Notes: generated from the sequence alone by a model not told the origin. A stretch of DNA of 64,000 nt from Planctomycetota bacterium (GCA_035527715.1 DATKZY010000187.1:49388-113387); one strand, 5' to 3'. Shown: positions 405 to 62,800, counted from the first letter of the stretch. Translations and numbers: made by a program.

Positions 405-1394
405 CTATTTTTCCTCACGTATTCCCTCGGTCGCTTCGGCTTTCCACGCGACGACGTTGTGCTGGGGCAGGATGGGCCGGGCGATGGCCTCGAAAGGGCG
501 GACGAGGGCCCGCGCTAGGGCGCTCCGCGGCAGGAGCGAGCGGATGGCGAAGTGCGGCCCGAACGCCGCGCGCAGCAGGCGCCGCAACTCGAAGAGCGAG
601 AGCAGGCGCTTGCTGCGATAGGGCTTTCCCCGGCGCCATCGCACGTAGGGCTCCATCCAGCGCCGCGGCAGCCAGCCCACGCCCCAGAGCTTCACGTGCG
701 GCTCGCGCGTGAGCAGGGTGAAGCGGTTGGGCGAGTTGAAGAAGAACAGGCCGCCCGGGCGGAGGGCCCGGCGCACCTCGCCCAGCAGCCGCTCCTGGTC
801 GGGCACGTGCTCGACGACGTCGGTCGCGTTCGCCAGGTCGAAGCTCTGCTCGGCGAAGGGGAGCTCGAGCGCGGAGGCGGCGACGAAGGCCACGTTCGCG
901 ATCCCGGCCTCGGCGAAGCGCTTCTTCGCCAGCAGCAGATCGGTCAGCAGGATGTCGAGTCCGACCGCCAGGCGGGCCCGCCGCGCCAGGGCGAAGAGGG
1001 CGCTCCCCGCGCCGCAGCCGACGTCGAGGGCCGAGGCGTCCATCGGCACCGTGCGTCCGGCCGCCGCGGCGTGGCAGGCGATCTGTTCCCAGCGGCGCGC
1101 GCCGCGCTGGGGGGCCTCGGCCTCGTGCTTGTCCCAGAGGCGCTGAAGGGCGTCCCCCTCCTCGCGGTGATACAGCCCCCAAAGCTCGCGGTAGGAGCTG
1201 TCGAGCCAGCGGCGGATCACCTCGAGGCAGAAGTCCCCGTGGCGCGGGCCTTCGGGCGGGTCGGGCCGGAAGTCCGGGATGCCGTGGATGACCTCGAAGG
1301 TGCGCGGGCACGCGGGGCAGGTAAGCCCCGCCGAGGCCACTGTGAGCGCGCCCCGGCACGCTGGGCATCGGAGGAGGGGAAGCAGCTCCGCCAT
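405..1394 (-). CDS. Class I SAM-dependent methyltransferase with an N-terminal Trm112-like zinc ribbon
   Basis: 329 aa. The N-terminus has CPACRG...CPACP. A DVGCGAGS SAM-binding motif is present, together with Methyltransf_11-like motifs II and III (LPFAEQSFD, LRPGG). The ATG at 1394 is preceded directly by a heptamer array. Confidence 0.8.
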   Translation of the reverse strand: MAELLPLLRCPACRGALTVASAGLTCPACPRTFEVIHGIPDFRPDPPEGPRHGDFCLEVIRRWLDSSYRELWGLYHREEGDALQRLWDKHEAEAPQRGARRWEQIACHAAAAGRTVPMDASALDVGCGAGSALFALARRARLAVGLDILLTDLLLAKKRFAEAGIANVAFVAASALELPFAEQSFDLANATDVVEHVPDQERLLGEVRRALRPGGLFFFNSPNRFTLLTREPHVKLWGVGWLPRRWMEPYVRWRRGKPYRSKRLLSLFELRRLLRAAFGPHFAIRSLLPRSALARALVRPFEAIARPILPQHNVVAWKAEATEGIREEK

Positions 1395-17974: not shown

Positions 17975-18023
17975 AAATGCGGATTGCGGAATCCGGATTG
18001 CGGAATGCCGAATGCCGAATGTG
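17975..18023. repeat. Heptanucleotide tandem array of 7 units: AATGCGG ATTGCGG AATCCGG ATTGCGG AATGCCG AATGCCG AATGTGG
   Basis: It starts 3 nt after the TGA of the epimerase gene and fills the spacer before the GT4 gene. Confidence 0.85.
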
Positions 18024-18079
18024 GCACAGCCGCCCCCGGCTGTGCTGCCACAGGCAAGGGCGCCTGTGCCACACGCGCG

Positions 18080-19174
18080 GTGCTGCAATTCGTAGACGCG
18101 CTGCTCCGCGGCGGGGCCGAGCGGCTGCTCGTGGAGTTGGCTGTGCGCCTCGACCGCGCCCGCTTCGCCCCCGCCGTTGCGTGCTTCCGTCAGGAGGCGT
18201 TCGGCGCCGAGCTGGCCGCCGCGGGGCGCACGGTGCACGTCGTCCCAAAGCGGCGCGCGTTCGACGTCGGGTTGCTCTTCCGCCTCACGCGCCTGTTGCG
18301 CCGCGAGAAGATCGCCGCCGTGCACGCGCACGACCTCCAGTCGGCCACCTACGGCCTGCTGGCGGGGGTCGTGGCGAGGGTGCCCGTGGTGCTGACGGTG
18401 CACGGCCTGGGCATCTTCCGCCAGAAGCGCGCGGCCTGGCTTCTCCCGCGCCTGGGGCGATGGCTCGCCCGCGTGGTCTTCGTGGGCCACTGGCTCCAGC
18501 GCGCCGCGGCCGACGAGTTCGGCGTCCGTCCTCGCCGCCCGATGGTCGTGCACAATGGGGTGGACCTCTCCGCGTTCCAGCCCGGCCCGCCCGAGCCGGA
18601 GCTGCGGGCCGACATGCGGGTGGGGGAGGGGACACTGGTTGTCGGCACCGTGGGCAACCTGAGGGCGGTGAAGGACTATCCGTGCCTGCTTCGCGCCTTC
18701 GCCGTGGCCCGCGCGCGCGCGGCGAATGCGGTGCTGGTGTTCGTGGGCGAGGGGGCGGAGCGCCCGGCCCTCGAGGCCCTGGCGCGCGAGCTCGGCATCG
18801 AGCGCGCCGTGCGCTTCGCCGGGGCGAGGAGCGACGTGGCGCGCCTGCTGCGCCTCTTCGACATCTTCGCCCTCTCGTCGCAGACCGAGGGCATCTCGGT
18901 GGCGCTCCTCGAGGCCATGGCCACGGGCCTCCCCGCCGTCGTGACCCACACGGGCGGCAACCCCGAGGTCGCCATCGAGGGGCGGACGGCGCACCTCGTG
19001 CCCGTCGGCGACCCGGCGCAGATGGGCGAGGCGCTCGCCAGGCTCCTCGCCGACCCCGCTCGTCGCCGCGCCTGGGGGCAGGCCGCCCGCACGCGCGTCG
19101 AGGAGGAGTTCTCGCTCGACAGGATGGTGCGAGCCTATGAGGCCGTCTACGAGGAACTCACGCGGCGGCGCTGA
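18080..19174 (+). CDS. GT4-family glycosyltransferase
   Basis: From GTG 18080 the translation reads VLQFVDALLRGGAERLLVELA, a typical GT4 N-terminus. The C-terminal part has FVGEGAER...ALSSQTEGISVALLEAMATGLPAVVT. The track ORF starts at 17969 inside the repeat array, and an in-frame ATG at 18008 is also possible. Confidence 0.75.
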   Translation: MLQFVDALLRGGAERLLVELAVRLDRARFAPAVACFRQEAFGAELAAAGRTVHVVPKRRAFDVGLLFRLTRLLRREKIAAVHAHDLQSATYGLLAGVVARVPVVLTVHGLGIFRQKRAAWLLPRLGRWLARVVFVGHWLQRAAADEFGVRPRRPMVVHNGVDLSAFQPGPPEPELRADMRVGEGTLVVGTVGNLRAVKDYPCLLRAFAVARARAANAVLVFVGEGAERPALEALARELGIERAVRFAGARSDVARLLRLFDIFALSSQTEGISVALLEAMATGLPAVVTHTGGNPEVAIEGRTAHLVPVGDPAQMGEALARLLADPARRRAWGQAARTRVEEEFSLDRMVRAYEAVYEELTRRR

Positions 19175-21136: not shown

Positions 21137-21853
21137 TTGGGCTCTGTGGGGCAGAAAGTTCGCTCGCACTTTCACGCCACGGCGCGCGAGTTCGACGCGA
21201 TCTACAGCGGCGAGAAGGGCGCCGCGGCGCGCTGGCTCGACCGCCTGCTGCGCTGGGACATGTACGAGCGCTTCCGCCGCACCGTGGGCGAGTGCTCCGA
21301 GCCCGGGCTGCGCGTGCTCGACGTCGGCTGCGGCTCCGGCCGCTTCAGCGTCGCCGTGGCCAGGGCGGGGGCGAGCGAGGTGCTGGGCCTCGACTTCGCC
21401 GAGAACATGCTCGAGATCGCTCGGCAGCTCGCGCAAAGGGAGGGGGTGGGCGAGCGCTGCCGCTTCCTCGCCGGCGACTTCATGGAACGCACGTTCGACC
21501 AGCCGTTCGACGTCACGCTGGCGATCGGGCTGTTCGACTACGTGGCGGACTGCCGCCCCTTCCTGCGGAAGATGCGCCGGGTGAGCCGCAGGAAGGTGGT
21601 CGCCACGTTCCCGCGGCGCTGGACGTGGCGGGCACCCGTCCGCAAGCTGCGCCTGGCCCTGTGCGGCTGCCCCGTCTTCTTCTTCACCCGCTCTGAGGTC
21701 GAGCGGCTTATGGCCGACGCGGGGTTTGCCCGCTTTGCCATCCAGCGCATCGGTAAGATCTACTTCGTGGTCGGCCACTGCGAGGGGTCACATCTTCATT
21801 TGGCACCTGGCCGCCCGGTGCGAAATGAAGATGTGACCCCGGGGGCAAGCTGA
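21137..21853 (+). CDS. Class I SAM-dependent methyltransferase. Its C-terminal 20 codons are supplied by a palindromic element.
   Basis: VLDVGCGSGRFSVAVA is motif I. The start is TTG 21137 or GTG 21146, after GGGAAGGGG. The last ~20 codons (GSHLHLAPGRPVRNEDVTPG) are encoded by palindromic element copy A1. Confidence 0.65.
   Translation: MGSVGQKVRSHFHATAREFDAIYSGEKGAAARWLDRLLRWDMYERFRRTVGECSEPGLRVLDVGCGSGRFSVAVARAGASEVLGLDFAENMLEIARQLAQREGVGERCRFLAGDFMERTFDQPFDVTLAIGLFDYVADCRPFLRKMRRVSRRKVVATFPRRWTWRAPVRKLRLALCGCPVFFFTRSEVERLMADAGFARFAIQRIGKIYFVVGHCEGSHLHLAPGRPVRNEDVTPGAS
21784..21840. mobile_element. Palindromic element family A, copy A1, about 57 bp: GGGGTCACATCTTCATTTGGCAC-11 nt-GTGCGAAATGAAGATGTGACCCC
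   Basis: The 23-nt arms are complementary at 22 of 23 positions. The element is in-frame at the 3' end of the methyltransferase CDS. Confidence 0.8.
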
Positions 21854-23289
21854 TGCGCGTGTGCGTCGTGGTCAACGGCTTGGGCGAGGAGCGGGCGGCG
21901 CTGGCTTCCTACGTGCTGCGAACGCTGCTCGGAACCATGGGCCTGTCCCTTTCTCCGCGCCGAGCGGACGGCCTTCTTGTGAGCTATGGGTGCCCCATCC
22001 CTGCCGATGGCGCAGGGGTCGAGATCGCGTGCGGCGACCCTCCGACGCCTGAGGAGGCAATTCAGGTGCACCGCCGCGTGACGAGCGAGGGGCCATCCCT
22101 CCTCGTGGCGGAGGGGCCGCGGGTGCGCGTGACGGCGGACCTCGTGGGCGCGGCGGGCCTCTGGCTCGCCGGCGGCGAGGAGCGAGCGGAGGGCTTCGAC
22201 GCATTCGGCCGCGCGTGCGGCGCCGCGAGCCCCCGCGCCGCTGCCGGCCTGCTTCGCACCCCCATGGTCCACGACCTGATGAGCCTGTTGTGCGCGGCGC
22301 TCTCCCGAGCGGCTGAGGCGGCCGGGCTTTCGCTCTCGCGTGTTCCCGCGTGGCCCGAGGGCCGCAAGTTCGCCGTCCTCCTGAGCCACGACGTGGACCT
22401 CTGGCGCAAGCGAACCGCTCGGCAGCTTGCCAAGGAGACGGTGAAGAGCCTCGCGCGCCCCTGGCGACTGCCCGGTGTCGCACGGGCCTTCTGCTGCGGG
22501 CCGGACCCGTGGAGCGATCTCGACGCCATCGCCGACCTCGAGGGACGCTACGGCATGCACTCGACCTTCTTCGCGCTGCCTGGCCGCCCGAACCGGGTAG
22601 TGGATGGCGTGGGGGTGGTGAACTCCTATGGCGCGAGGGCTGGCGCCGTCGGGGAGGCGTTGCGCCGCCTCGTCGCCCGCGGCTGGGAGGTGGGCCTCCA
22701 CGGCAGCTTCGACTCGTATCGGTCGACCGAGGCCCTCGCCGGCGAGCGGCGCGACGTGGCGGCGCTCCTGGGGGTCACATCTTCATTTGCCACTTCTCGG
22801 CAAGTGCGAAATGAAGATGTGACCCTCGTCACGGGCTGCCGCCAGCACTTCCTGCGCTTCGAGCGACCCGTCACATGGCGTGCCCAGGCCGAGGCCGGCC
22901 TGCGCTACGACGCGACCCTCGGCTACCACGACACCGACGGCTACCGCGCCGGCTTCTCGTTCCCCTTCCGGCCCTTCGCGGGCGAGGAACTGCTGCTCCT
23001 GGAGCTCCCGCTCGCCGTGATGGACGGGGCGCTCCTCGAGCGACAGGGGCTCGACGCCGAGGCCGCCTGGGGCCTCGTTGAGGGGTATCTCAAGCGCACG
23101 GAGGCGGACGGCGCGATGCTGGGCCTCCTGTGGCACAACAACTACTTCTGCGACCTGGACGCGCCCGGCTACCGAGGCGTCTACGAGCGAGCGCTCGGCT
23201 GGACCCGCGACCACGGCGGCTGGGGCGCCTCGGCGCGCGAGATTGCCGAGTGGTGGGAGCGCCGCGCCGCGCTCCTCCAGGAGGGCTGA
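21853..23289 (+). CDS. Polysaccharide deacetylase (NodB/CE4-like) family protein with an N-terminal extension
   Basis: 478 aa. FAVLLSHDVDLW, LHGSFDSYRS and GCRQHFLRFERP are deacetylase-like motifs. Element copy A2 is inserted in-frame, encoding GVTSSFATSRQVRNEDVTLV. Confidence 0.75.
   Translation: MRVCVVVNGLGEERAALASYVLRTLLGTMGLSLSPRRADGLLVSYGCPIPADGAGVEIACGDPPTPEEAIQVHRRVTSEGPSLLVAEGPRVRVTADLVGAAGLWLAGGEERAEGFDAFGRACGAASPRAAAGLLRTPMVHDLMSLLCAALSRAAEAAGLSLSRVPAWPEGRKFAVLLSHDVDLWRKRTARQLAKETVKSLARPWRLPGVARAFCCGPDPWSDLDAIADLEGRYGMHSTFFALPGRPNRVVDGVGVVNSYGARAGAVGEALRRLVARGWEVGLHGSFDSYRSTEALAGERRDVAALLGVTSSFATSRQVRNEDVTLVTGCRQHFLRFERPVTWRAQAEAGLRYDATLGYHDTDGYRAGFSFPFRPFAGEELLLLELPLAVMDGALLERQGLDAEAAWGLVEGYLKRTEADGAMLGLLWHNNYFCDLDAPGYRGVYERALGWTRDHGGWGASAREIAEWWERRAALLQEG
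22771..22825. mobile_element. Palindromic element family A, copy A2
   Basis: GGGGTCACATCTTCATTTGCCAC-10 nt-GTGCGAAATGAAGATGTGACCC, in-frame inside a deacetylase gene. Confidence 0.8.
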
Positions 23290-26128: not shown

Positions 26129-27221
26129 AATCGGAAATCGAAGAACCCTGCTTCTCCTCACAGTGGATACCGAGTCGAGCATGGCCGGCGTGCGCCCGCT
26201 GCCGCCCGAGGCGATGGTGTGGGGGTCACCTCTTCATTTCGCACATGGCGGCTATGTGCCAAATGAAGATGTGACCCCTGGCGGCACCTGGGGCATCGAG
26301 CGGCTGATGGACTGCTTCGACGCCCGCGGCCTCAAGGCCACGTTCTTCGTGAGCACGCTGGAGGAACTCCACCACGGTGAGGAGCACGTGAAACGCATTT
26401 GCTCGGCCGTTCTGGACCGCGGCCACGACGCGCAGCTCCACCTCCACCCCAACTGGTGGAAGGGCGATTTCGCCCGCAAACGGCTCACCGACTACTCGCT
26501 CGAGGAGCAGACCGAGCTCGTGCGTCTCGCCAAGGAGGCATATCGCCGCGCGTGCGGCTCGGAGCCCGTAGCGCATCGCGCCGGCGGGCTGCTCGTGAAT
26601 GCCGACACGTTCCGCGCCCTGGCGGCGAATGGGATTCCGATGGATTCCTCGGTCGCCATCGGCCACATCCCCTATGAGCTTGGCGAAGGGGTGACGCCGC
26701 CCAACGTGCCCCGACGGCTCGGCTCCGTCATCGAGGTGCCCGTCACTACCTTTGCCCAGATGCGCCTCGGCCCCTGGGCGCCGCGGCGCCACTTCGACCT
26801 GAATGCCGATTCCCTCTCGGAGCTGAAGCTCGTGGTGGACCGCGCCGTGCAGCAAGGCGCGGCGGCGGCGTGCCTGCTGATGCACAGTTTCTCGCTCATT
26901 GCTCGGAACCGCGAGGGGACGGAGTTCAGGCCCGCCGAAGCCGAGTGCCGCAAACTCGAGCGATTCCTCGACTATATTGCCACGCGTGGGGATGTGGAGG
27001 TCGTGACCGTTCGCGAGGTGGCCCGCCGCATCGAGGGCGAGCCCGCGCTGCTCGCGGGGCCGGACCTCGAGGCGACCGCAGGCGTCTTCCGCACGTGGCG
27101 GCGGAGCTGCGAACGCTTCGGCGCGGGCTGGAAGAGCAAGGCATTCGCGCTGGGCCTCCCCCTCGGGCTGGCGGCCCTTGCGGCGCTGGTGATAGGAGCC
27201 ATCTGGTGGCTGACGTCCTGA
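26115..27221 (+). CDS. Polysaccharide deacetylase-like protein (divergent NodB-like LTVDTE type). Palindromic element A3 is inserted in-frame.
   Basis: It begins MEQSEIGNRRTLLLLTVDTESS and contains HLHPNWW plus a C-terminal TM. ATG 26115 overlaps the previous gene by 14 nt, and ATG 26181 is an alternative start. A heptamer array at 26124..26144 spans the junction. Confidence 0.6.
   Translation: MEQSEIGNRRTLLLLTVDTESSMAGVRPLPPEAMVWGSPLHFAHGGYVPNEDVTPGGTWGIERLMDCFDARGLKATFFVSTLEELHHGEEHVKRICSAVLDRGHDAQLHLHPNWWKGDFARKRLTDYSLEEQTELVRLAKEAYRRACGSEPVAHRAGGLLVNADTFRALAANGIPMDSSVAIGHIPYELGEGVTPPNVPRRLGSVIEVPVTTFAQMRLGPWAPRRHFDLNADSLSELKLVVDRAVQQGAAAACLLMHSFSLIARNREGTEFRPAEAECRKLERFLDYIATRGDVEVVTVREVARRIEGEPALLAGPDLEATAGVFRTWRRSCERFGAGWKSKAFALGLPLGLAALAALVIGAIWWLTS
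26124..26144. repeat. Heptanucleotide array TCTGAAA TCGGAAA TCGAAGA overlapping the TGA stop of the GT4 gene
   Basis: It is period-7 and belongs to the same family as the 28251 and 59637 arrays. Confidence 0.75.
26222..26278. mobile_element. Palindromic element family A, copy A3, in inverted orientation relative to A1/A4
   Basis: GGGGTCACCTCTTCATTTCGCAC-11 nt-GTGCCAAATGAAGATGTGACCCC. It is in-frame and encodes GSPLHFAHGGYVPNEDVTPG. Confidence 0.8.
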
Positions 27222-28285
27222 AGCTCGCCGCGCGGCAGGCCGTGGCGTTCCTGGCGGTGCGCTCGCGGCTGTGGCCCGTCGTGCCGAAGGGCCGCGCCCT
27301 CGTGCTTCGCTACCACCGGGTCGCCCGTGCCGGCGCGCCGCCCGTGCCGCTCGCGGTGCCTGCGGCGGAGTTCGAGGCCCAGTTGCGCTTTCTCGCCGCG
27401 CGCGCTCACGCGATGACCGCGGGCGAGATCGCCGCCGCAGCGGCCGGCGGCCAGCCCTTGCCCCCCAACGCCGTCGCTATCACCTTCGACGACGGCTACG
27501 AGGACAACTGCTCGCAGGCCCTCCCGCTCCTCCAGCGCTACGGCCTGCGAGCCACCTTCTTCGTCACCGCAGGCTGGATCGGCACCGAGAACGTCCTGTG
27601 GTGGGACCGGCTCCACGACTACATCCGCCAGGCGGCGGCGCTGGCCGCGCGGCCCATAGACTACCAGGACCTCCCGAAGCCGCTGGTCGCCGCACTGGCG
27701 GCCGCGGACCTCCGCACCGGCGCCGGCGCCGCGCGGCTCGAGCGCGACCTCGCCGCGGCGCTCGGCGGCCTGGCCCTCACGCCCGAGGAGACCGATCTCC
27801 TCGTCGAGCGCGTCGCCTCCGCGCTGGGGTCCGACGTGGCCGACCCCGAGCCCTACCGCCCCATGACCTGGGACCAGGTGCGCGAACTGCACCAGGCGGG
27901 CATGGAGATCGGCTCGCACACCATGTCGCATGGCCGCCTGGTCCACGTGCCTGCCGAGCGCGCCTACGAGGAGCTGGAACGGTCAAAGCAGGCTATCGAG
28001 CGGGAGTTGGGTGCCCCCGTCTCGCTCCTCGCCTATCCTGCCGGGAGCCACAACCAGGACGTCGTGGACCTCGCGGTGGAGACGGGCTACGAGGCCGCCT
28101 TCACGACGGCCAGCGGCCCCGTGGCCCCGGGCGACGACCTGTTCCGCCTCCGCCGCATCGGCGTCTGGGCGGGCGGCTATCGTGGGGCGCTCAACAGCTT
28201 TTCTGATTCCGTCTTTGGCCTCCAGCTCGGACGCTTGGCGCGTCAGCCAAGCGGAAATCGGAAACCGGAAACCGGCAATGCCTAG
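27206..28285 (+). CDS. Polysaccharide deacetylase (NodB/CE4) family protein
   Basis: [19 protein letters not shown] and LAYPAGSHN are present. It starts at GTG 27206, overlapping the previous gene by 16 nt, so the start is uncertain. Confidence 0.75.
28251..28278. repeat. Heptanucleotide array GCGGAAA TCGGAAA CCGGAAA CCGGCAA ending exactly on the A of the ATG at 28278
   Basis: Four units. It encodes the C-terminal tail ([11 protein letters not shown]) of the upstream gene and forms the immediate 5' context of the next start codon. Confidence 0.85.
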
Positions 28286-29261
28286 GGTCAGCGTGGTGAT
28301 CCCAGCGTTCAACGCCGAGCGGTATCTCCGCGAGACGCTGGAGTCGGTGCTGGCCCAGACGTACCGGGACTTCGAGGTGGTGGTGGTGGACGATGGGTCG
28401 TCGGACGGCACGGCGGAGCTGGCAGCCAGCTTTGGCGAGCCCGTGCGGTGCATCCGCCAGGCCAACGCCGGGCCGTCCGCCGCCCGCAACCGCGGCATTC
28501 GCGAGGCCCGGGGCGAGCTGATCGCCTTCGTGGATTCCGACGACCTGTGGCTGCCCGAGAAGCTGGCCGAGCAGGTGCCGCTCTTCGATGGTGGCACAGG
28601 CTTCCAGCCTGTGGGCCTCGTCTACTGCCACGCAGAGCGGGTGGACGCCGAGGGGCGGCCGCTGCCCACGGCGCAGGCGCCGAAGCCGGTCGGCCGGGTT
28701 CCCGGGGACTTCCTTTTCCGCAACCACTGCCCGACCTCGGCCGCAGTGATCCGCCGCGAGTGCTTCGAGCGGTGCGGCTACCTCCCCGAGGACATGATTT
28801 GGGCGGAGGACTGGCATCTGTGGCTGCGGATCGCCCGCCGCTACGAGTTCGCCGCCGTTCCGCGCGTCCTCGTGCGGCACCGCGTCCACTCGGGCGCGCT
28901 CACGAAGCACATTGAGAAGGCGTATCTGGGCGCACGCCGCGTGCTCGAGACGGCGCTGGAGCCGGGCGACCCGCCGGAGTTGCGCGCCGCGCGGCGAAGC
29001 GGCCTCCACCGCCTCGACCGCAACCAGGCCCTCAACCTGCTGGCTTTGGGCGAGACGCGCGCGGCCCGCCGCTGCTTCCGCCGGGCCATCGGCAACGGGC
29101 CGGGCGACCCGCACGTCTGGGCCGGCTGCGCCCTGAGCCTTCTCCCCGCGGCTCTGCGGAGGCCCCTGATGCGCGCGTGGAAGCGCCGCGTGCCCTGGGT
29201 GCCCTGGGGCCCCGACGGACGGGCCGAGGCCCGAAGGTGGATGGACAGTGCAGGCGATTAA
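28278..29261 (+). CDS. GT2-family glycosyltransferase (soluble type)
   Basis: [17 protein letters not shown]...[12 protein letters not shown]...[16 protein letters not shown]-ttcca-GCCTGTG hairpin is inserted in-frame at 28595..28613. Confidence 0.85.
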
Positions 29262-30275: not shown

Positions 30276-31163
30276 ATGAACCAGAAAGCGGCGGTTGTCG
30301 AGCACTTCGACCGGTTCGCAGCGGACGATCGTTGGTCGAGTCTCTACGACGAGATCCGGGATCCGTTGGCGGCCCACAGCTTCCTGATGCGCAAGCGGCG
30401 GGTCGAAGAGCTGTCCGAGCCGCTCGTGGGGCAGGGCTCGAAGGTGCTCGACGTCGGCTGCGGCACGGGCCTCAGCGCGCCCTTCTACATCGAGAAGGGC
30501 TGCCGCTACCAGGGCGTGGACATCGCGGCGAAGATGATCGAGCAGGCGCGGACCAAGGTATGTGGGCGGGGGCTCTGTCCCCCGAGAGAAGCAGGAGAAG
30601 AAGCGGGGCGCGGAGGCCCCGCCCACAACGGTACAGCCGTCTTCGCCATCGGCGACGTCGAGGCCGGCCTCGCCTTTCCCGACGGGCATTTCGACCTCGT
30701 CATCGGCCTCGGCCTGCTCGAGTACCTGGACCGGCTGGACGCGGCGCTCGACGAGATGGTGCGGGTGACACGGCCGGGCGGGAGTCTGATCCTCACGGTG
30801 CCGAATCGCAATTGTGTGAATTACTTCGCCACCCGCGCCCTCGGGCCAGTCGTGTCGAGCGCCTGGTGGCTCGTCAAGCGTCTGCTGCGGCGGCCCATCG
30901 AGAAGCACGGCGTCTATCATCGGCGGTTCACGGCGGCCCGATTCGCGCAGTGGCTCGCCGACCGCGGCTGCGCGAAGACCGGCCAGGCGTATTACAACCT
31001 GGAGGCGCTCTTCTACCCGCTCCACCGCATTTGCCCCAGGCTGGCCTACGCCCTCAAGCGCCGCGTCGAGCGCCGCCACGAGGGCTGGATGCACGTCCTT
31101 GCCACTGGCTACATCCTTCGCTGCCAGAAGGGTGGGGGAGAGGAGGGGGGCGCCGGTGCCTGA
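30276..31163 (+). CDS. Class I SAM-dependent methyltransferase carrying an in-frame compound palindromic insert
   Basis: VLDVGCGTGL is motif I and LILTVPNR is also present. An insert of about 68 nt at 30561..30628 (TGTGGGCGGGGGC...GCCCCGCCCACA) encodes VCGRGLCPPREAGEEAGRGGPAHNG between motifs. Confidence 0.8.
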   Translation: MNQKAAVVEHFDRFAADDRWSSLYDEIRDPLAAHSFLMRKRRVEELSEPLVGQGSKVLDVGCGTGLSAPFYIEKGCRYQGVDIAAKMIEQARTKVCGRGLCPPREAGEEAGRGGPAHNGTAVFAIGDVEAGLAFPDGHFDLVIGLGLLEYLDRLDAALDEMVRVTRPGGSLILTVPNRNCVNYFATRALGPVVSSAWWLVKRLLRRPIEKHGVYHRRFTAARFAQWLADRGCAKTGQAYYNLEALFYPLHRICPRLAYALKRRVERRHEGWMHVLATGYILRCQKGGGEEGGAGA

Positions 31164-34434: not shown

Positions 34435-34560
34435 GTGCGAAATGTAAAATGCAAAAGGCAAAGTGCAAAATCCAGAACACACCTGGGGCTAGGGGAGTAA
34501 GCGACATCGGGGCTCACCATTTTGCCTTTTGCACTTTGCCTTCTGCATTTTGCATTGGGA
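34435..34560. promoter_or_regulatory. AT-rich long imperfect inverted repeat immediately upstream of the B12-radical-SAM gene. It could be an operator/promoter or an RNA hairpin.
   Basis: The arms are gtgcgaaatgtaaaatgcaaaaggcaaagtgcaaaatcc and cattttgccttttgcactttgccttctgcattttgcattggga, separated by about 45 nt. It is the only strongly AT-rich patch in a 70% GC locus. Confidence 0.4.
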
Positions 34561-36166: not shown

Positions 36167-37525
36167 ATGCGCGTGACGCTGGTGCAACCCGACACGGGCG
36201 GGAGCTATCCGCCGCTGAGCCTGGGCTACCTGGCGGCCTATGCCGCCGCGCGGGGCCACGAGGCGCGGATTCTCGACCTCCAGGTGCCCGCGCAGCGCGA
36301 GCGCTGGGAAGAGCTTCTCGTCGAGGCTCGGCCCGACCTCGTCGGCTTCACGGCCCTCACGCCGAGCATTCGCCAGGCGGGTGAGCTGGCCGCCCGCGCC
36401 CGCGAGCTTCTCCCCAGCGCGAAGCTCATCGTCGGCGGATTTCACGCCTCGATGGAGCCTGAACAGACGCTTCGCGACTATCCCGCCTTCGACTACCTGT
36501 GCATTGGCGAAGGCGAGGAAACGCTGGCCGAGCTGTGCGGGCGGCTCCAGGACGGCCAGTCGCCGGAAGGCATCGCGGGCCTCGCGTGGCGGAAGGGCGA
36601 GGCCGTCGAGCTCGGGCCGCCGCGGGGCCGGATCGCCGACCTCGATCTTCTGCCGAGCCCCCATGGCTTCTACGGCCTCGAGCACTACCTCGAATCGGGC
36701 AGTTTCACCTACCAGTATGGCTATCGCTGCGCGTCGGTCATCGCGTCGCGGGGTTGCCCGTTTCGCTGCCGGTTCTGCTCGATTCCGGGCAAGTACGTTC
36801 ATCAGTCGGTCGAGCGCCTGGCCGACGAGATTGCGGAGCTGCTTCGGCGGGGGGCCGACGGCGTGTTCTTCCGCGACAGCACGTTCACGATCCGGCGCGA
36901 CTGGGTGCTGGCCTTCTGCGAGGCCGTGCGCCAGCGGCGGATGCGGTTCCACTGGATCGCGAACGCGCGGCCGGACCTCGTGGACGACGAGCTGCTGGCG
37001 GCGATGAAGCGCGCGGGCTGCTTCGCCCTCTGCTACGGCGTCGAGAGCGGCCGCGACAGCGTGCTCGACTACTATGGCAAGGACCACACGGTCGAGGACA
37101 CCCGCCGCGCCGTGGCCGCGACGAAGCGCGCGGGCATTCGTGTCATCGCCTACTTCATGCTCGGCGCGCCCATCGAGACGCGGGCCGACATCGAGGCGAG
37201 CCACCAGTTCGCCCGCGAGCTGGGCGCCGAGCGCACGATCTGGAAGATCTTCGCCCCGCTCCCCGGCTGCGAGATCTACAACGAGCTGAAGGCCAAAGGC
37301 GTGAAGCTGGACTTCGATGCGATTCGCACCGACCGGGCCTCGTATCCGCTGGCAGACATGACCGAGGCGGAGATCGAGCAGCGGTTCCGCGAGCTACAGG
37401 CAGAGTTCGCCTACACCCGCGGCAGCCGCCTCCGCGTCTTCTGGCGTCAGCTTCGCCGCGTCCGCTCGCCCCGCGACGCCTGGCGCCTCGCCCGCCGGGT
37501 GGCAGCCAGGCTGCTTCGTGGGTAG
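36167..37525 (+). CDS. B12-binding domain radical SAM protein, tandem paralog of the 34571..35953 gene
   Basis: MRVTLVQPD...SRGCPFRCRFCSIPGKY. The domain order matches the upstream paralog and the two are about 50% identical by eye. Confidence 0.85.
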   Translation: MRVTLVQPDTGGSYPPLSLGYLAAYAAARGHEARILDLQVPAQRERWEELLVEARPDLVGFTALTPSIRQAGELAARARELLPSAKLIVGGFHASMEPEQTLRDYPAFDYLCIGEGEETLAELCGRLQDGQSPEGIAGLAWRKGEAVELGPPRGRIADLDLLPSPHGFYGLEHYLESGSFTYQYGYRCASVIASRGCPFRCRFCSIPGKYVHQSVERLADEIAELLRRGADGVFFRDSTFTIRRDWVLAFCEAVRQRRMRFHWIANARPDLVDDELLAAMKRAGCFALCYGVESGRDSVLDYYGKDHTVEDTRRAVAATKRAGIRVIAYFMLGAPIETRADIEASHQFARELGAERTIWKIFAPLPGCEIYNELKAKGVKLDFDAIRTDRASYPLADMTEAEIEQRFRELQAEFAYTRGSRLRVFWRQLRRVRSPRDAWRLARRVAARLLRG

Positions 37526-37630
37526 GATGGTTGGATGAATGGATGACTGGATGATTGTCAGAGGAGCCTTGCCGCCTTCCCATTCATCCATCCATCCACC
37601 CATCCATTCATCCTCCTCCAGGAGGCGCAT

Positions 37631-38647
37631 GTGAGCCGCTGGGCCAGGCAACTCGTCGTCACCGTGTCCGTCGAGCCCGACGATCCGTCGGTCGTGGGCC
37701 GGTCGGGAGCGTATCGCTCACTCGACGGGCTTGAGCGGTTCCACGAGCTGTGCCGACGCTACGGCGTGCGGCCGACGTATCTCGCCACGTACTCGGCGGC
37801 GGGGGAGACCCGGTGCGTGGACCTCTTCCGCTCCTGCGGCGACGAGGCCGAGGTCGGGGCGCACCTGCACCCCGAGGAGGTGCCGCCCATCGCCGAGGGC
37901 GAGCGTGGCAACCACACGCTGCGCCCGAGCGCGGTCGAGCCCGGCCGCCTGCGGGAAAAGCTGGCCAACCTCGTCGAGCGCGTGGCGGAGGCGGCGGGGC
38001 GGCGGCCCACCGCGTATCGCGCCGGCTTCTTCGACCTCACGCCCAGCCAGGTCGTCGCGCTTGTTGGGCTGGGGATCGAAGCCGACTCCAGCCTTGGCCC
38101 CCTGGAAAAGGTCGGCGGCAAGTACCCGTTTCTTCGCGTTCCCTTTGAGCCATACGTCGCTGACCCCGCGAACCCGTGCACAGAGGCTCACGCGTCACGC
38201 GTCACGCGTCACGCATCACTCGTCGAGGTTCCCCTCACCAGCGTCTTCCGCCGTCCTTTTCCCAGGCGGCTTTTTGGTGTATACTTCGGGATGCCGGGTG
38301 TCGTGCGAGGGGCGCTGCGCGCGCTCGGCGCCGCCGAGGTGCTGCGGTTCCGCCCGGCAGTGGCCTCCGCCGACGACTTGCTGGCCGTGTGCCGGCGCAC
38401 GGAGCGGCTGGGCGTGCCCGCGGTCATGACCATTCACTCGAACGAGTTGTGGCCGGGCACGAGCGCGGGGTCACATCTTCATTTGGCACCTGGCGGCGAA
38501 GTGCGAAATGAAGATGTGACCCCCGAGGCGGCCTGTGCCGCCTACTTCGAGCGCCTCGAGCGGGTGTTCGCGCATTGCCAGGCGGACGGCTGGGCGAGCC
38601 GCACGCTCACGGAGATCGCCCGCGCAACCCGGGGGAATGCGGGATGA
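37631..38647 (+). CDS. Polysaccharide deacetylase-like protein (LTVDTE-type paralog of 26115..27221). It carries palindromic element A4 and an in-frame GTCACGC heptamer array.
   Basis: VVTVSVEPDD...HLHPEE. Element A4 encodes GSHLHLAPGGEVRNEDVTPE. The array at 38187..38214 encodes AHASRVTRHAS. Confidence 0.65.
   Translation: MSRWARQLVVTVSVEPDDPSVVGRSGAYRSLDGLERFHELCRRYGVRPTYLATYSAAGETRCVDLFRSCGDEAEVGAHLHPEEVPPIAEGERGNHTLRPSAVEPGRLREKLANLVERVAEAAGRRPTAYRAGFFDLTPSQVVALVGLGIEADSSLGPLEKVGGKYPFLRVPFEPYVADPANPCTEAHASRVTRHASLVEVPLTSVFRRPFPRRLFGVYFGMPGVVRGALRALGAAEVLRFRPAVASADDLLAVCRRTERLGVPAVMTIHSNELWPGTSAGSHLHLAPGGEVRNEDVTPEAACAAYFERLERVFAHCQADGWASRTLTEIARATRGNAG
38187..38214. repeat. Heptanucleotide array CTCACGC GTCACGC GTCACGC ATCACTC, in-frame in a CDS
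   Basis: The same GTCACGC array recurs at 63815..63842 inside the last gene. Confidence 0.8.
38467..38523. mobile_element. Palindromic element family A, copy A4
   Basis: GGGGTCACATCTTCATTTGGCAC-11 nt-GTGCGAAATGAAGATGTGACCCC. It is nearly identical to A1. Confidence 0.8.
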
Positions 38648-39058: not shown

Positions 39059-42000
39059 ATGCCGATGCCCCAGGTGCACTTCGCGGTCGGCATGGGAGCG
39101 GCCTCGCTGCTGGGCGTGCCGCTGCTCGTGCTGCGCCGGCGCTGGCTCCTGTGGCTGCCGCTCGTCATGACCGCGTGCGGCGCGCTGGCGCTGGTGCCCG
39201 ACGTGGTAGCGCGGGGCAGGGACTTCCTGCCCGGGCCCGCGGCCGAGCGGGGGCGCACGCACACCCCCGCGGCCAACGTGTTCTTCCTGCACACGTGGCT
39301 CGACCGGCAGCCGGCCCTCTACGCGCCGGCCGTGGCCGACCTGGCGTTCCAGGCCGTGGCGCTGATGTACCTGGCCTCCGCCATCGGCTATGCGGCCTTC
39401 CTCCGCTGGGGGCTCCCTCGGATGGCCGAAGCGGGGGAGGCGTTAGCGCGGCTGCGGCGCGAGACGGCGAGCTATCGCCCCGTGGCCGCCCTGCTCGGCC
39501 TGCTGCCGCTCGTGGTGGCCGGCGCGGCGGCGGTGTGGACGCTGTGGCCCAAACGCCCCGCGGGCGCGCCCGCCCAGGGGCAGGAGGCGCTCGACCCCGC
39601 GCAGTGGGCGCAACTTGTCTCGCGGCGCCTCGGCGTCGCGGTCGGCCAGCGCCTCGGCGTCGTCCATTCGACATGGGACAGCCATGGGGCCTGGCTGTGC
39701 GGCGACCTGGGGGCGAGGGTGTCGCCCGACGCGCCGGGCGCCGCCGAGCTCGTCGAGCGCGCGAAGGCCAATGGCTGCGATTTCGTGGCGTTGCTGGACG
39801 GCGCGAGCCCTGACGACCTTGCCGCGGCGCGACAGAAGCACCCCGACATGGCCCTCCTGGCGGGCCTGGTGTGGGACGCGCCGACGAGGCGGGGGGCCGA
39901 GCGAGCCATCGTGCTGGTGCCGCCGCAAGCGCGCGAGGCCGCGGTGCTGGCCGACTTCCGCCGGCAGTTCGCCGGCCCGGGCGGATCGGCAGAGGATGCC
40001 CTGCGATGGCTCGACGCCCACGGCGCCTCGCCCAAGGCACAGCCCGTGGTCCTGGCGGCACAGGCTTCCAGCCTGTGGGCCACAGGCAAGATGCCTGTGC
40101 CACCGGGCAGCGGGGAGGGCTGGCCGGATCTCTTCTCGTGGCGGCGGACGAATGGGCTGTTCATCGGCTTCCTCGGCCTTCCGGGCGCCGAACGCCTGTC
40201 CGCCCGCGAGGCCCGCAGCCAGTGGGACCCCCGCGTGGCCGCCGTGGGGGGCATGTGGGACAGGTTCCTGGACGGGGGCTTCCGGCTCTGGGGCGCGGCC
40301 GCGGCATCCGGCTTCCAGGACCCTGCCCGGCAGTTCTGGCCGGGCGAGTTCGCCCGCACCCACGTGTGGTGCCGCGGGCGCGCCGCGGAGGACGTGTTGG
40401 GCGGCCTCCGGGACGGGTGCTTCTGGGCCGTCGAGGGCGCGGTCGTGCGCGCGCTGGACTTCGGGGTCAACGCCCCGACGCTCGAGCGGCCCGCGCGGAT
40501 GGGCGAGGTGGCCCGCGTGGCGCCGGGCGACGAGGTGACCGTGGAGCTGGCCCTGGACGTGCCGCCCACCGACTTCGCCGGGCGCCCGAGCCAGCTCGAC
40601 GAGGTGGAGCTGGTCTCGAACTTCGGCGGCGAGGCCGAGGTCGTCGCGCGGTTCCGCAACGTGCACGACGTGCGCCGCCTCGAGCACCGCCTGCCGCCGG
40701 CCCAGGACGCCAACGGCGGCCTCGGCTTCTACGTGCGCGCCCGAGGCTCCCGCCGCGTGGATGCGGGAGCGCGGCTGTTCTTCTACACGAACCCCATCCG
40801 CGTCCTCGTGCGGCCGGGGCTGGCGCCGCCGGCGCCGCCGGGCGCGGCCCCCGTCCGCGTGGCCTCGGCGCACCGCCCCGTCGAGCCCGCGCCGCCGAAG
40901 CCCAAGACGGCGACGCCCGTAGCGCCGCCGCCCGAGGACGACGTGCGGGCGCGGCTCGCCGCCGTCGGCCTGCCGGCCGGCGTGAGCCCCGTGTGCGTCG
41001 AAACGTTTCAGAAGCCGCCCGGGCGCCAGTGGCTTGGCGCCCACGTGAGCATCATCGGCGACCGCGGCCCGGCCCTGGGCGACGAGGAGCTGCGCGTCGA
41101 GCTCCTCCAGCGCATCCCCCTTGGCGAGGCCACCCGACTGTTCTTCCGGTGCTACGCCTTGGACTGTGCCCGGCTGACGCTTGTCGCGCGCCCCGGCGGC
41201 GGAGCGGCCGCCTGCCAGGCCGTCCGCGAGCTCCCCGAGCGTCAGTGGGTCGAGTTCGACCTCTCGCTCGGCGACGACTTCCTGCCCCTGCGCGGGACCT
41301 CGGGCCGCCTGGGGCCGCCGGGCGAGGTCCAGGCCCTCGAGTGGGCTGGCGCCCGCCTCGGGCCGCTCTCGCGCTTCTACGTGACCGATGTCGTCGTCTA
41401 CGAGCCCACGCCTGCCAGCCGCCAGGGGCTGGCCCTGAAGCAAGCGGTGGACCTGGACGCGGCGCTGCGCGAGACGGCGGGCCGAGGGGCGACCGCAGCC
41501 ATGCAGCAACGGGCCCAGGCCGCCCTGGACCGCCTCGCCGCCTGGCGCGCGCGGCTCGACCCCAGACGAGGGCCACCGACGCCCGACGAACTGGCCGCCG
41601 TCCGCCGCGACCTGGCCGAGTTGGCCGCCGAGAGCCGTTGTCTTGGCTGGCAGGCCGCCATGACTCGCACCTTCCGCCTCGGCGACCCCAGGTTCGCCGT
41701 CACCCTCGCCGCCCCCGGCCAGCGCATCTCGGCGCGCAACCCCGCGCTCAACCCGTCGCCACAGATCGCCCGCTCGTGGGACCTGGCCGCCGCCGGCGCC
41801 GAGGCCGAGAGCGTCCAGATCGTCGTCATCGCCCTCTGGGACAGGCTCGAGGCCGTCGCCGTCGGCGTCTCGCCGTTCGTCCCTGTGGCTCGGGATGGGG
41901 CCGAGGGCCCGCCCGGCGGCGAGCGGGCCGCCACGCTGCCGACCTCGCTTGCCCTCGTGGGCGAGGCGATGGTGCGCCCAGGCCCCCTCCTCGCCCCCGA

Positions 42001-59815: not shown

Positions 59816-62800
59816 ATGTCCCCCACGGAGAAGCCGATGCTTCGTGCCTGTCTCGCCTGCGTGCTTGCGATGGCGGCGTTCGCCGCGGAGGCGGCCGCCC
59901 CTCGACGCGCTCGGGGCGCCGTGAGCCTGCCGAGCGCCGCCGACCCCGCGTACTACGTGAAGAAGGCCACGTGGCAGGAAACGATGCTGGCCTCGCGCGA
60001 GGCCCTGGCCACGGCCCAGGCCGAGGCGCCCAAGGAGTCGGCCTTCAAGCCCTATGTGACAGGCGTCATTCGCGGCGGCCAGCCCGCTCAGCAGATTTCC
60101 CTCGATGTGTCCACGCTCGACCAGCTCTGGCTCCTGGCCGACGTGGGCGACGACAACTACGATTCCGACCAGGCCATCTGGGGCGAGCCCACGCTCGTCG
60201 CCAGGGACGGCACCAGGGTGCCCCTCACCACGCTCAAGCCCGTCTCGGTCAAGGTCGGCTGGGGCAACCTGATCGTCAACAACAACCACACCAAGGCTGG
60301 CCTCCGCATCGCCAACAAGAAGTACGAGCATGGCTTCTGGGCCCACGCCCCGAGCGCCCTGTGCTTCGCTCTGGGCAAGAAATACGTGAGGTTCGAGGCC
60401 TGGGCCGGCATTGACGCGACGGCGACCTCGCACGGCTCGGTGAGGTTCCACGTGCTCGACAAGGCCGGCCGCACGAGCGACCTCGATGCCCTCTGGTCGC
60501 TCGTGGGCCGCGACTTTCCCAACGCCAGCCGCGAGATGCAGTGGGAGCGCCAGGACCGCATCTGGGACGACGATTGGCGGCCTGGCGACCTCGCCATGCT
60601 CGGCGCCCGCTACGCGAAGTGCGCGGCGACCCGAGCCAAATCCATGGCCGCCGAGGCCCAGAAGCTTGCGCCCGCTGTGGCCGATGCCGTGGCCCTTCAG
60701 AAGGTGCGCGAGCTGTACTACCGCGCGCACACCATCGAGGAGAACCTGGCGAAGCTGGGCGACCTGAAGTTCGAGCCCCTCCGCCTCGCCCTCGCCGACC
60801 TCATCGAGACCCACGGCGACACGTATCCCAAGGGCCGCGAGTTTCTCCAGCGCCTCGACGCACTCGAGAAGTCGGCCTCGGCCGACGACAAGGCGGCGGA
60901 CCCCGAGCGCAAGGCGAAACTCGTCGAAGAGTTCGAGTCACTCAAGCGCGAGGCGCTGCTCGCCAATCCGCTGCTCTCGTTCGACAAGCTGCTTGTCGTG
61001 CGCCGCAGCGCGCGCAACCTCGCCCTGCCCGCCAACTGGCAGGGCAACTCGTGCCTGCCCCGCAGCGGACTCGACAACGAGATCGCCATCCTCTCGCTCC
61101 GCGCTGTGGGCGGGGCGTCCCTGCCCCGCGTCCAGACCCTCTACAAGCCCGAGGGCGGCAGGTTCGTGGGCGATGTGGACCTGCATTTCGATGCCGACCG
61201 CCTGCTCTTCTCCTCGCTCGACGCGAAGAACAAATGGCAGGTCTTCGAGATGACGCTCAAACCTCCCGCGGGTTCGCAACCCGCGGGAGGTTATCCCATC
61301 CGCCAGCTCACCGGCGAGCAGCCCGACGTGGACAGCTACGACGCCTGCTACCTGCCCGACGGCCGCATCATGTTCTGCTCGACCGCGCCCTTCGTCGGCG
61401 TGCCCTGCGTCTTCGGCTCCTCGCACGTCGCCATGCTCTACCGCATGGACGCCGACGGCAAGAACATCCGCCAGCTCTGCTTCGAGCAGGACCACGACTG
61501 GTGCCCCGCCGTGCTCAATAACGGCCGCGTGCTCTACCTCCGCTGGGAGTACACCGACACGCCGCACTCGCAGACCCGCATCCTCTTCCACATGAACCCC
61601 GACGGCACCGAGCAGATGGAGTACTACGGCAGCAACTCGTACTGGCCGAACGGCGTCTTCTACGCCCGCCCGATCCCCAATCACCCGACAAAGGTCGCGG
61701 GCATCGTGACCGGCCACCACGGCGTGCGGCGGATGGGCGAGCTGGTGATCTTCGACCCCGGCAAGGGGCGCCACGAAGCATCGGGCGCCATCCAGCGCAT
61801 CCCCGAGCGCGGCAAGGAGGTCGAGCCAATCATCCGCGACGGCCTGGTCAACGCCTCCTGGCCGAAGTTCCTCCACCCCTATCCCCTCAGCGACAAGTAT
61901 TTCCTCGTCGCCTGCCAGCCCACGGCGAAGTCACTCTGGGGCCTCTACCTGGTGGACACGTTTGACAACATGCTCCTCCTGCACGAGGAGCCGGGCTACG
62001 CAATCCTCGAGCCCGTGCCGCTCCAGAAGACCCTCAAGCCGCCCGTCATCCCCGACAAGGCCGACCCGAAGCGCAAGGACGCCGTGGTGTACATGGTGGA
62101 CGTCTACCAGGGCGACGGCCTGAAGGGCGTGCCGCGCGGCACGGTGAAGAAGCTGCGCATCTTCTCCTACCATTTCGCCTACCACGGCATGGGCGGCCTG
62201 CTCGGCGTGGTGGGCATGGACGGCCCGTGGGACCCGAAGCGGATCGTGGGCACGGTGCCCGTCGAGAGCGACGGGTCGGCGCTCTTCCGCGTGCCGGCCA
62301 ACACGCCCATCTCCATTCAGCCGCTCGATGCCGAGGGCAAGGCGCTTCAGCTCATGCGAAGCTGGATGACCGCCATGCCCGGCGAGGTGCTCTCGTGCGT
62401 CGGCTGCCACGAGCGGCAGAACAGCTCGCCGCCCGCGAGGCAAACGCTCGCCCAGGCCAGGCCGCCCGCCGAGATCGAGCCCTGGCGCGGCCCCGCACGC
62501 GCCTTCAGCTATCCCCGCGAGGTCCAGCCGGTCATTGACAAGTATTGCATTGGCTGCCACAACGGTGAGAAGCGGCCCGATGGCAAGGTGGCCGCCGACC
62601 TCCGCGGCGACAAGCGCCTCGCCGACTTCAGGCTCGTCACGCCCGGCAACGGCGGCGGCAACGCAGGCCGCTTCTCCGTCGGATACGGCGAGCTCCACCG
62701 CTACGTCCGCCGCAACGGCATCGAGGGCGACTACCACCTGCTCACGCCCCTGGAGTTCCACGCCGACACCACGGAGCTCGTCCAGCTCCTCCAGAAGGGC

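Follow-up and report, generated by a model that had tools for sequence, protein, structure and literature searches.

The DNA analyzed here is a 64,000-nt stretch from a Planctomycetota bacterium (GCA_035527715.1 DATKZY010000187.1:49388-113387), hereafter the window, in which a gene encoding a class I SAM-dependent methyltransferase carries a compact GC-rich palindrome among its codons (Table 1). The product of this gene scores above the Pfam cut-offs for Methyltransf_11 (E = 2e-19), Methyltransf_25, Methyltransf_23, Methyltransf_12 and Methyltransf_31, and its motif I, VLDVGCGTG, which shows the GxGxG signature of Rossmann-like methyltransferases, is conserved among the aligned homologs. For Methyltransf_11, the 95 profile positions matched are spread over 116 residues, and the match to Methyltransf_25 falls into two stretches. 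The gene is found between those for a polysaccharide deacetylase and a radical SAM/SPASM protein, an order kept at two of the loci retrieved for comparison (L002 and L003), so that the methyltransferases compared below can be treated as orthologs. In the AF2 model of the protein (pLDDT 84.9, pTM 0.85), residues 97-120 form a coil with a pLDDT of about 63, located between a helix (85-96) and a strand (121-125), while the remaining fold is confidently predicted.

Table 1. Position and composition of the host gene, the inserted element and the other family units in the window.
Feature	Position	Strand	Sequence	Remarks
Host gene, class I SAM-dependent methyltransferase, 295 aa	30276..31163	+		Pfam, gene order, AF2 model
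Whole tail-to-tail REP dimer (REPIN-like), 67 nt	30561..30627	+		Inverted repeat I17, fold z-scores, filled versus empty alignment
Left REP unit	30561..30586	+	TGTGGGCGGGGGCTCTGTCCCCCGAG	GTGG head outward
Spacer, 15 nt, purine-rich	30587..30601	+	AGAAGCAGGAGAAGA	Loop of the long hairpin
Right REP unit, inverted	30602..30627	-	AGCGGGGCGCGGAGGCCCCGCCCACA (as read on the + strand)	Head outward
Second window copy, perfect single unit	61105..61130	+	TGTGGGCGGGGCGTCCCTGCCCCGCG	0 mismatches to the family pattern
Possible decayed unit, weak assignment	1311..1336	-	CGCGGGGCAGGTAAGCCCCGCCGAGG (as read on the + strand)	3 substitutions from the family pattern

The palindrome had been described in an earlier note as a compound structure at 30561-30628, with outer arms pairing over 11 bp and two hairpins inside, and its sequence is exactly the one given there. 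The 11-bp arms are real, and make up the perfect outer part of a longer, imperfect inverted repeat, I17, whose 24-nt arms (30561-30584 and 30604-30627, 83% complementary according to the repeat finder) are separated by 19 nt. The two internal hairpins are also real, and correspond to the stems of two 26-nt units in opposite orientation, each consisting of a GTGG head, a 7-bp stem and a 6-nt loop; in the left unit, the stem GCGGGGG/CCCCCG(C) closes the loop CTCTGT. Each unit differs by one substitution from the pattern of the dispersed family described below, and the two are of different subtypes, that of the left unit being seen 21 times in the fetched loci, the whole forming a spaced tail-to-tail pair. 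Folded as RNA, the palindrome reaches -51.3 kcal/mol, against -33.2 ± 3.6 for shuffled sequences (z = -5.1, with 0/200 equally stable), and its DNA fold is similarly outstanding (-28.6 kcal/mol, z = -5.4, again with 0/200 equally stable). Translation of the open reading frame yields VCGRGLCPPREAGEEAGRGGPAHNG for this stretch, matching the peptide previously reported. The sequence had further been called unrelated to three other palindrome families, A to C, which is consistent with the differing sequences of the other palindromes in the window. Two leads were abandoned. The flanks resemble splice sites (GTATGT...ACAG), a coincidence in a bacterial, gene-dense and syntenic genome where the element is a dispersed repeat; and the 10-mer arm GTGGGCGGGG, allowing one mismatch, matches the window 24 times for 22 expected, which is uninformative in DNA of 70% GC.

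Alignment with 27 close homologs confirms that the segment is extra sequence, lodged between the helix that follows motif I/post-I and the AVFAIGDVE strand. The claim that orthologs have no such segment is right for 24 of the 27; it does not extend to P0002, which has a variant of it, nor to P0008, which has an unrelated palindromic insert at the same place. P0002 (87% identity) is a homolog sharing the insert only in a formal sense, its near-identical sister allele P0003 being empty. Away from the site, the filled locus L001 (encoding P0002) and the empty locus L002 (encoding P0003) differ by 7 substitutions over about 780 nt, and this identity of some 99% is as one would see for a polymorphic insertion rather than an ancestral segment of the protein. 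Beside the insertion site, by contrast, 18 substitutions are found in about 80 aligned nt. The two loci are distinguished by a presence/absence polymorphism, borne by a short tract of recombination. At the empty site, the sequence is AAGGTG CGCTGTGAGCAG GCC. Relative to it, the window gene has gained a net 63 nt (21 aa) and stays intact, and L001 has gained 72 nt, for an element that itself measures 67 nt. In the alignment of filled and empty alleles, neither a target-site duplication nor a clean insertion boundary is readable at the window site.

Another explanation to weigh is that of a sequencing or assembly artefact, in which a repeat was collapsed, for instance, or sequences were joined into a chimera. 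In related metagenome-assembled genomes (MAGs), contigs are indeed broken by repeats of this family, many copies of which sit at contig ends. Here, however, contigs of four independent runs or samples show no difference in either gene or element, an ENA assembly, itself independent, has a related element at this position, and the reading frame is intact, which leaves an artefact with practically no likelihood.

The insert of P0008 (70% identity; L003:3654-4565) deserves separate description. It is a different segment of 28 residues in the same methyltransferase loop, encodes SDFGFRISDLGFQNPIRNPQSAIRN, and consists of an unrelated palindrome of hexamer repeats, (GATTTCG)n ... (AATCCGC)n. The same gene has a second insert near its C-terminus, GGCCACAGGCCGGAGGCCTGTGCCAC, encoding WRPQAGGLC. 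As far as these sequences can tell, this one methyltransferase loop has been occupied repeatedly, by at least two unrelated hairpin families.

The window element and its counterpart in L001 can be compared free of the bias introduced elsewhere by selecting loci with a 22-mer. Codon-position divergence between the two genes is 7.5%, 5.7% and 18.9% at positions 1, 2 and 3. The right units differ at 1/26 positions and the left units at 5/26, some of these being compensatory changes of the stem, while the loop is the same in both; the spacers differ at 11 of their 15 positions. Set against 19% at third codon positions, such a spacer divergence speaks against any single, simple insertion history, and points to conversion or replacement by another copy of the family, or to repeated occupation of the site.

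The palindrome is a REP-type pair from a dispersed, RAYT-associated family, whose copies were sought in genomes and in metagenomes with a 22-nt core of the right unit as probe. Within the species-representative genome collection, the probe matches 57 stretches, all in Planctomycetota MAGs and mostly in VGYV01 and JBGLNR01, with about 45 stretches in the former and 10 on a scaffold of the latter. The metagenomes add at least 119 stretches, from environments of many kinds; the window's own sample series is among them, and the copies on its contigs may belong to other organisms. The window itself has two clear family elements: in a blastn-short comparison of the element with the window, the one meaningful extra match is the single unit at 61105. 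In frame, the latter gives VGGASLPR, in a loop that is shorter by 4 aa in 10 of 11 homologs; the protein has more than 1399 aa (ORF from 59804 to the window end, + strand; GC 0.66/0.47/0.91 by codon position). As for the possible decayed unit, a Markov control gives 0.6 matches per window at 3 substitutions from the pattern.

The family unit is 26 nt long and comprises a T-GT[G/A]G head, a 7-bp stem GCGGGGC/GCCCCGC, a 6-nt loop and a final G. GTGG heads are common and GTAG heads a minority (14/146 intragenic units), with no clear difference in the use of the two by location. Units are found singly, in inverted pairs that either abut or are spaced, and in direct arrays with a period of 33-45 nt; inverted pairs account for 33 of 90 elements. 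The heterodimer found in the window recurs at about 18 other sites, where the spacers are purine-rich, measure 13-18 nt and in many cases terminate in GAGAAGA. Across 33 distinct unit variants, 99.1% of cells are paired; compensatory changes are present in all three stem pairs left free by the search pattern, and none of 500 shuffles reaches the observed covariation. The hairpin thus appears to be under selection, its stem being kept by compensatory changes.

At four sites common to VGYV01 and JBGLNR01, the flanks are 87-91% identical and the units mostly identical, while about half of the positions in the inter-unit spacers differ, a conservation of units that is biased upward, these loci having been chosen by an exact 22-mer. 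This contrast, together with the very stable fold and with the G-U pairs allowed on the sense strand, is what might lead one to regard the hairpin as kept for a role as a cis-acting RNA or DNA regulator of the operon, acting by translational pausing, mRNA stability or protein binding, with its repeat origin secondary. The selection bias weakens the first of these arguments. Moreover, the window element has no Rfam match, promoter and terminator scans were negative with no terminator-like U tract at the element, and a near-identical empty allele exists in nature. We therefore hold a cis-regulatory explanation to be very unlikely, and retain that of a dispersed REP pair.

What connects the family to a transposase is the presence of its units beside RAYT genes. 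Three orthologous RAYT genes exceed the 80-bit cut-off of NCBIfam REP_Tyr_transpos: P0241 (L024, VGYV01; 98.4 bits), P0244 (JBGLNR01; 100.9 bits) and P0249 (96.7 bits), the last found in several other MAGs, and each has family units on both sides. Around P0241 these form arrays on both flanks, around P0244 they are GTAG-headed, and P0249 has around it three heterodimers like the one in the window. Immediately downstream of P0249, the pair shares its spacer core, GAAGCAGGAGAAGA, with the window element; between the two there are about four substitutions and a single 3-nt indel. The RAYT of L024 (L024:4043-4780, - strand, VGYV01000034.1) is itself interrupted in frame by four tandem units with a 45-nt period (AGRGGPAHSEAPVKG x4), placed between the N-terminal strand and the HUH motif. 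No RAYT homolog lies within the 64-kb window; the genes found, including the members of the P0249 cluster, come from other MAGs, assemblies or samples, with differing protein accessions. A cognate RAYT flanked by its own units (a REPtron) is accordingly documented for the family, and one would be expected in the window's genome, where we consider RAYT-driven mobility somewhat more probable than its contrary. An indirect sign of mobility is the filled or empty state of the site in L001 and L002.

Two further Y1/RAYT-like genes, found by motif search in the VGYV01 MAG (L009:7268-7843 and L029:6961-7522), were rejected as cognate, being flanked by other REP families, CCTCCCGAAGG...CCTTCGGGAGG and GGTGCCACGCCCAA...TTGGGCGTGGCACC, respectively. 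Since each has a REP family of its own, several REPtron systems must coexist in one genome.

The same loci allow the element to be weighed as an IS-derived MITE, mobilized by a DDE transposase through terminal inverted repeats rather than as a RAYT-dependent REP pair. It is indeed short with inverted ends, and related MAGs hold a larger composite repeat with 29-nt terminal inverted repeats (CTAAATAACTCGCCACGATTCTGAATCAA) that contains a unit pair. Nevertheless, each arm is in itself a hairpin kept by compensatory changes; units also exist singly and in direct arrays; three RAYT genes are flanked by them, while no DDE transposase adjoins units in the inspected loci and no matching IS was seen. 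No target-site duplication is visible at the window site, where boundaries have been blurred by later change, or at the approximately 18 sister sites. A MITE is thus very unlikely, and a REP pair remains the reading adopted here.

The composite repeat is of interest in its own right. Its terminal inverted repeats (CTAAATAACTCGCCACGATTCTGAATCAA ... TTGATTCAGAATCGTGGCGAGTTATTTAG) surround about 100 nt including a REP pair, and it is multi-copy, in L011, L016, L019, L025, L040, L046 and L053 (VGYV01) and in L035 (JBGLNR01). So many of its copies are at contig ends that the assembly was evidently broken by it. This multi-copy flank had been considered as an end of the family's transposase and was rejected as such, being a separate repeat; judged from translations, its neighbors in L046 and L035 resemble a DNA methylase and a nucleotidyltransferase/HEPN pair.

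Where, then, do the copies reside? Location within genes was assessed by the codon-position GC periodicity, that is the codon phase, on both flanks, for which the chance of the phase being kept is one third. Among the genome loci, 46 of 80 are intragenic and in frame, and the codon phase is kept in 49 of the 51 with a coding signal on both flanks; the corresponding values for the metagenome loci are 57/122 and 60/67. After deduplication, 86 of 199 elements are intragenic and in frame, so that about half of the sampled copies depart from the extragenic location by which REPs are classically recognized. No unit has a stop codon in any frame. When the strand that is read head-first is also the coding strand, the use of the three frames is strongly skewed (4/71/7) in favor of VGGASxPR, and readings containing Cys or Trp are rare; in the opposite orientation, it is even (19/22/23). 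Such a bias is hard to explain by the mechanism of insertion, and would fit selection on the translated peptides.

The window copy is read in the rare frame, as CGRGLCPPR, and its two cysteines (CGRGLC) are the main reason to envisage the segment as a selected, functional part of the enzyme, for instance a Cys-containing metal-binding or regulatory loop whose palindromy would be incidental; its identity in four samples and the variant in P0002 go in the same direction. Against this, the same nucleotides are present at unrelated sites by the dozen, both in genes, where each of the six frames is used, and in non-coding DNA, and the Cys-containing frame represents only 4 of 82 same-orientation units family-wide. 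In addition, 24 of the 27 orthologs, a near-identical allele among them, do without the segment, and the AF2 model makes it a low-confidence coil. A functional segment is therefore extremely unlikely.

Direct tandem arrays of units were seen at L007:4661-4851, L008:1406-1560 and L050:6812-6936, with periods of 33 or 35 nt. Those of 33 nt (L007 and L050) are part of long ORFs, where they would be translated as 11-residue repeats such as AGRGGPAHRDS, while the 35-nt array of L008 has a stop codon in the reading frame of its flanks.

In its structure the family can be compared with the GTAG-tagged REPs of the PVC superphylum, whose stems are mostly of 6-9 bp and which occur in clusters or as dimers, either head-to-head or, with spacers that vary, tail-to-tail, in association with RAYT genes (Di Nocera et al., 2013, PMC3733652). 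In Opitutus terrae GTAG-20, the heads are mutated to GTGG in most units, and although most REPs are intergenic, intragenic GTAG REPs are known, more than half of them being dimers or groups that encode 20-30 aa (PMC3733652). Our family shares with GTAG-17 to GTAG-20 of O. terrae the GTAG-type head, the stem length, the occurrence as singletons, dimers and clusters, the RAYT genes and the intragenic copies. It differs in stem and loop sequence and in its uncultured Planctomycetota hosts, this comparison being made by description rather than by base-by-base consensus, and also in having about half of its sampled copies inside genes. The REPIN-RAYT systems of Pseudomonas and Enterobacteria (Bertels and Rainey, 2011, PMC3116915; PMC3337134) offer a second parallel. 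There too an inverted pair of units plus spacer is the replicating unit, the RAYT gene is flanked by units, elements are inherited vertically and persist for long periods at orthologous sites, and lineage-specific unit subtypes travel with RAYT orthologs. Unlike those REPINs, which are described as extragenic, many copies here lie in frame within genes, and one RAYT is interrupted by four units; REP insertion inside some RAYTs has been mentioned previously (PMC6006769).

A third parallel, with the palindromic elements of Rickettsia (RPEs), is limited to behavior, that is to in-frame insertion. RPEs are in-frame palindromes found in many unrelated protein genes, where they are tolerated as surface segments, and RPE-1 is much longer, at about 100-150 bp. 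The family described here is GC-rich, has a GTGG/GTAG head rather than CGTC, a 26-nt unit and a RAYT association, and does not match the RPE consensus; RPE-4 and RPE-6 are themselves CGTC-type REPs (Di Nocera et al., 2013, PMC3733652). Taken by its sequence features, the family has every structural attribute of a GTAG-type REP/REPIN and lacks only the historical label of being extragenic. The general phenomenon of intragenic GTAG-type REP dimers is already published, and what is new is this family; what is unusual about it is that so large a share of its copies is intragenic, that their use of frames is biased and that one methyltransferase loop has been reused by unrelated hairpin families.

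The palindrome is thus very probably a REPIN-like pair of GTGG/GTAG-headed REP units, from a RAYT-associated family, inserted in frame and tolerated as a surface loop of the methyltransferase. A REP pair was inserted, or recombined, into the codons of that loop. Because the net length is a multiple of three and the units are free of stops, the gene stays open, and the element is predicted to be translated as a flexible loop of 21 residues that leaves the Rossmann fold intact. In the scenario we favor, propagation of the family would be the work of the cognate RAYT, a Y1/HUH transposase. RAYTs recognize the unit hairpin and its GTRG head on single-stranded DNA. Once in place, the element would persist vertically, and would be spread or lost through homologous recombination between alleles. 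Selection would presumably purge copies that break the frame or encode badly tolerated peptides, and such purging would leave the surviving intragenic copies in frame, with the Gly/Ala/Ser/Pro-rich reading favored. The hairpin formed in the mRNA, of -51 kcal/mol, may possibly affect translation or mRNA stability.

A bolder proposal, which we put forward tentatively and consider rather less probable than its negation, is that in this clade of Planctomycetota the REPIN-RAYT systems have shifted to living largely inside coding sequence. The pointers toward it are that about half of the copies are translated, that units are stop-free with VGGASxPR favored, that units at orthologous sites remain constant while spacers diverge approximately neutrally, and that a single loop has received at least two unrelated hairpin families. 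If this were true, hairpin repeats would be a major and ongoing source of loop insertions in these proteomes, and it would be at the level of DNA or RNA, and not of the peptide, that selection or gene conversion preserves the units.

For annotation, a class of odd low-complexity loops in Planctomycetota proteins (CGRGLCPPR, VGGASLPR, AGRGGPAH and RGAEAPPT among them) should be read as repeat-derived insertions and not as lineage-specific domains, and it should be kept in mind that repeats of this family also break MAG assemblies. Since it combines identified RAYT genes, natural filled and empty alleles and a high share of translated copies, the family is a usable system for studying how REP pairs insert, how coding sequences tolerate them, and which of selection and gene conversion maintains the units. 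The finding extends a published phenomenon and overturns nothing.

Several other palindromes are present in the window. At 61262-61293, in frame within the gene that holds the single REP unit, a perfect palindrome with a 14-bp stem (ACCTCCCGCGGGTT CGC AACCCGCGGGAGGT) adds 9 residues (KPPAGSQPA) that are absent from 11/11 aligned homologs; it resembles the CCTCCCGAAGG REP family flanking the RAYT of L009. A family of 54-57-nt palindromes, GGGGTCACATCTTCATTTGGCAC...GTGCGAAATGAAGATGTGACCCC, has four window copies (21784-21840, 22772-22825, 26222-26278 and 38467-38523), of which that at 22772 has coding-type periodicity on either side of it, with no change of phase. Long, AT-richer palindromes made of short tandem motifs of the AATGCAAAA and GGATGAATGG types, with arms of 30-37 nt, are found at 34436-34556 and 37508-37614. 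Finally, GGCACAGGC...GCCTGTGCC palindromes at 18001-18092 and 40051-40107 give peptides such as HRLEACAT or PQAGGLCH, the one at 40051 again lying between flanks whose coding periodicity has the same phase, and the peptide GTGFQPVG, encoded in a glycosyltransferase ORF at 27930-29261, is similar to those of the 18001 and 40051 palindromes.
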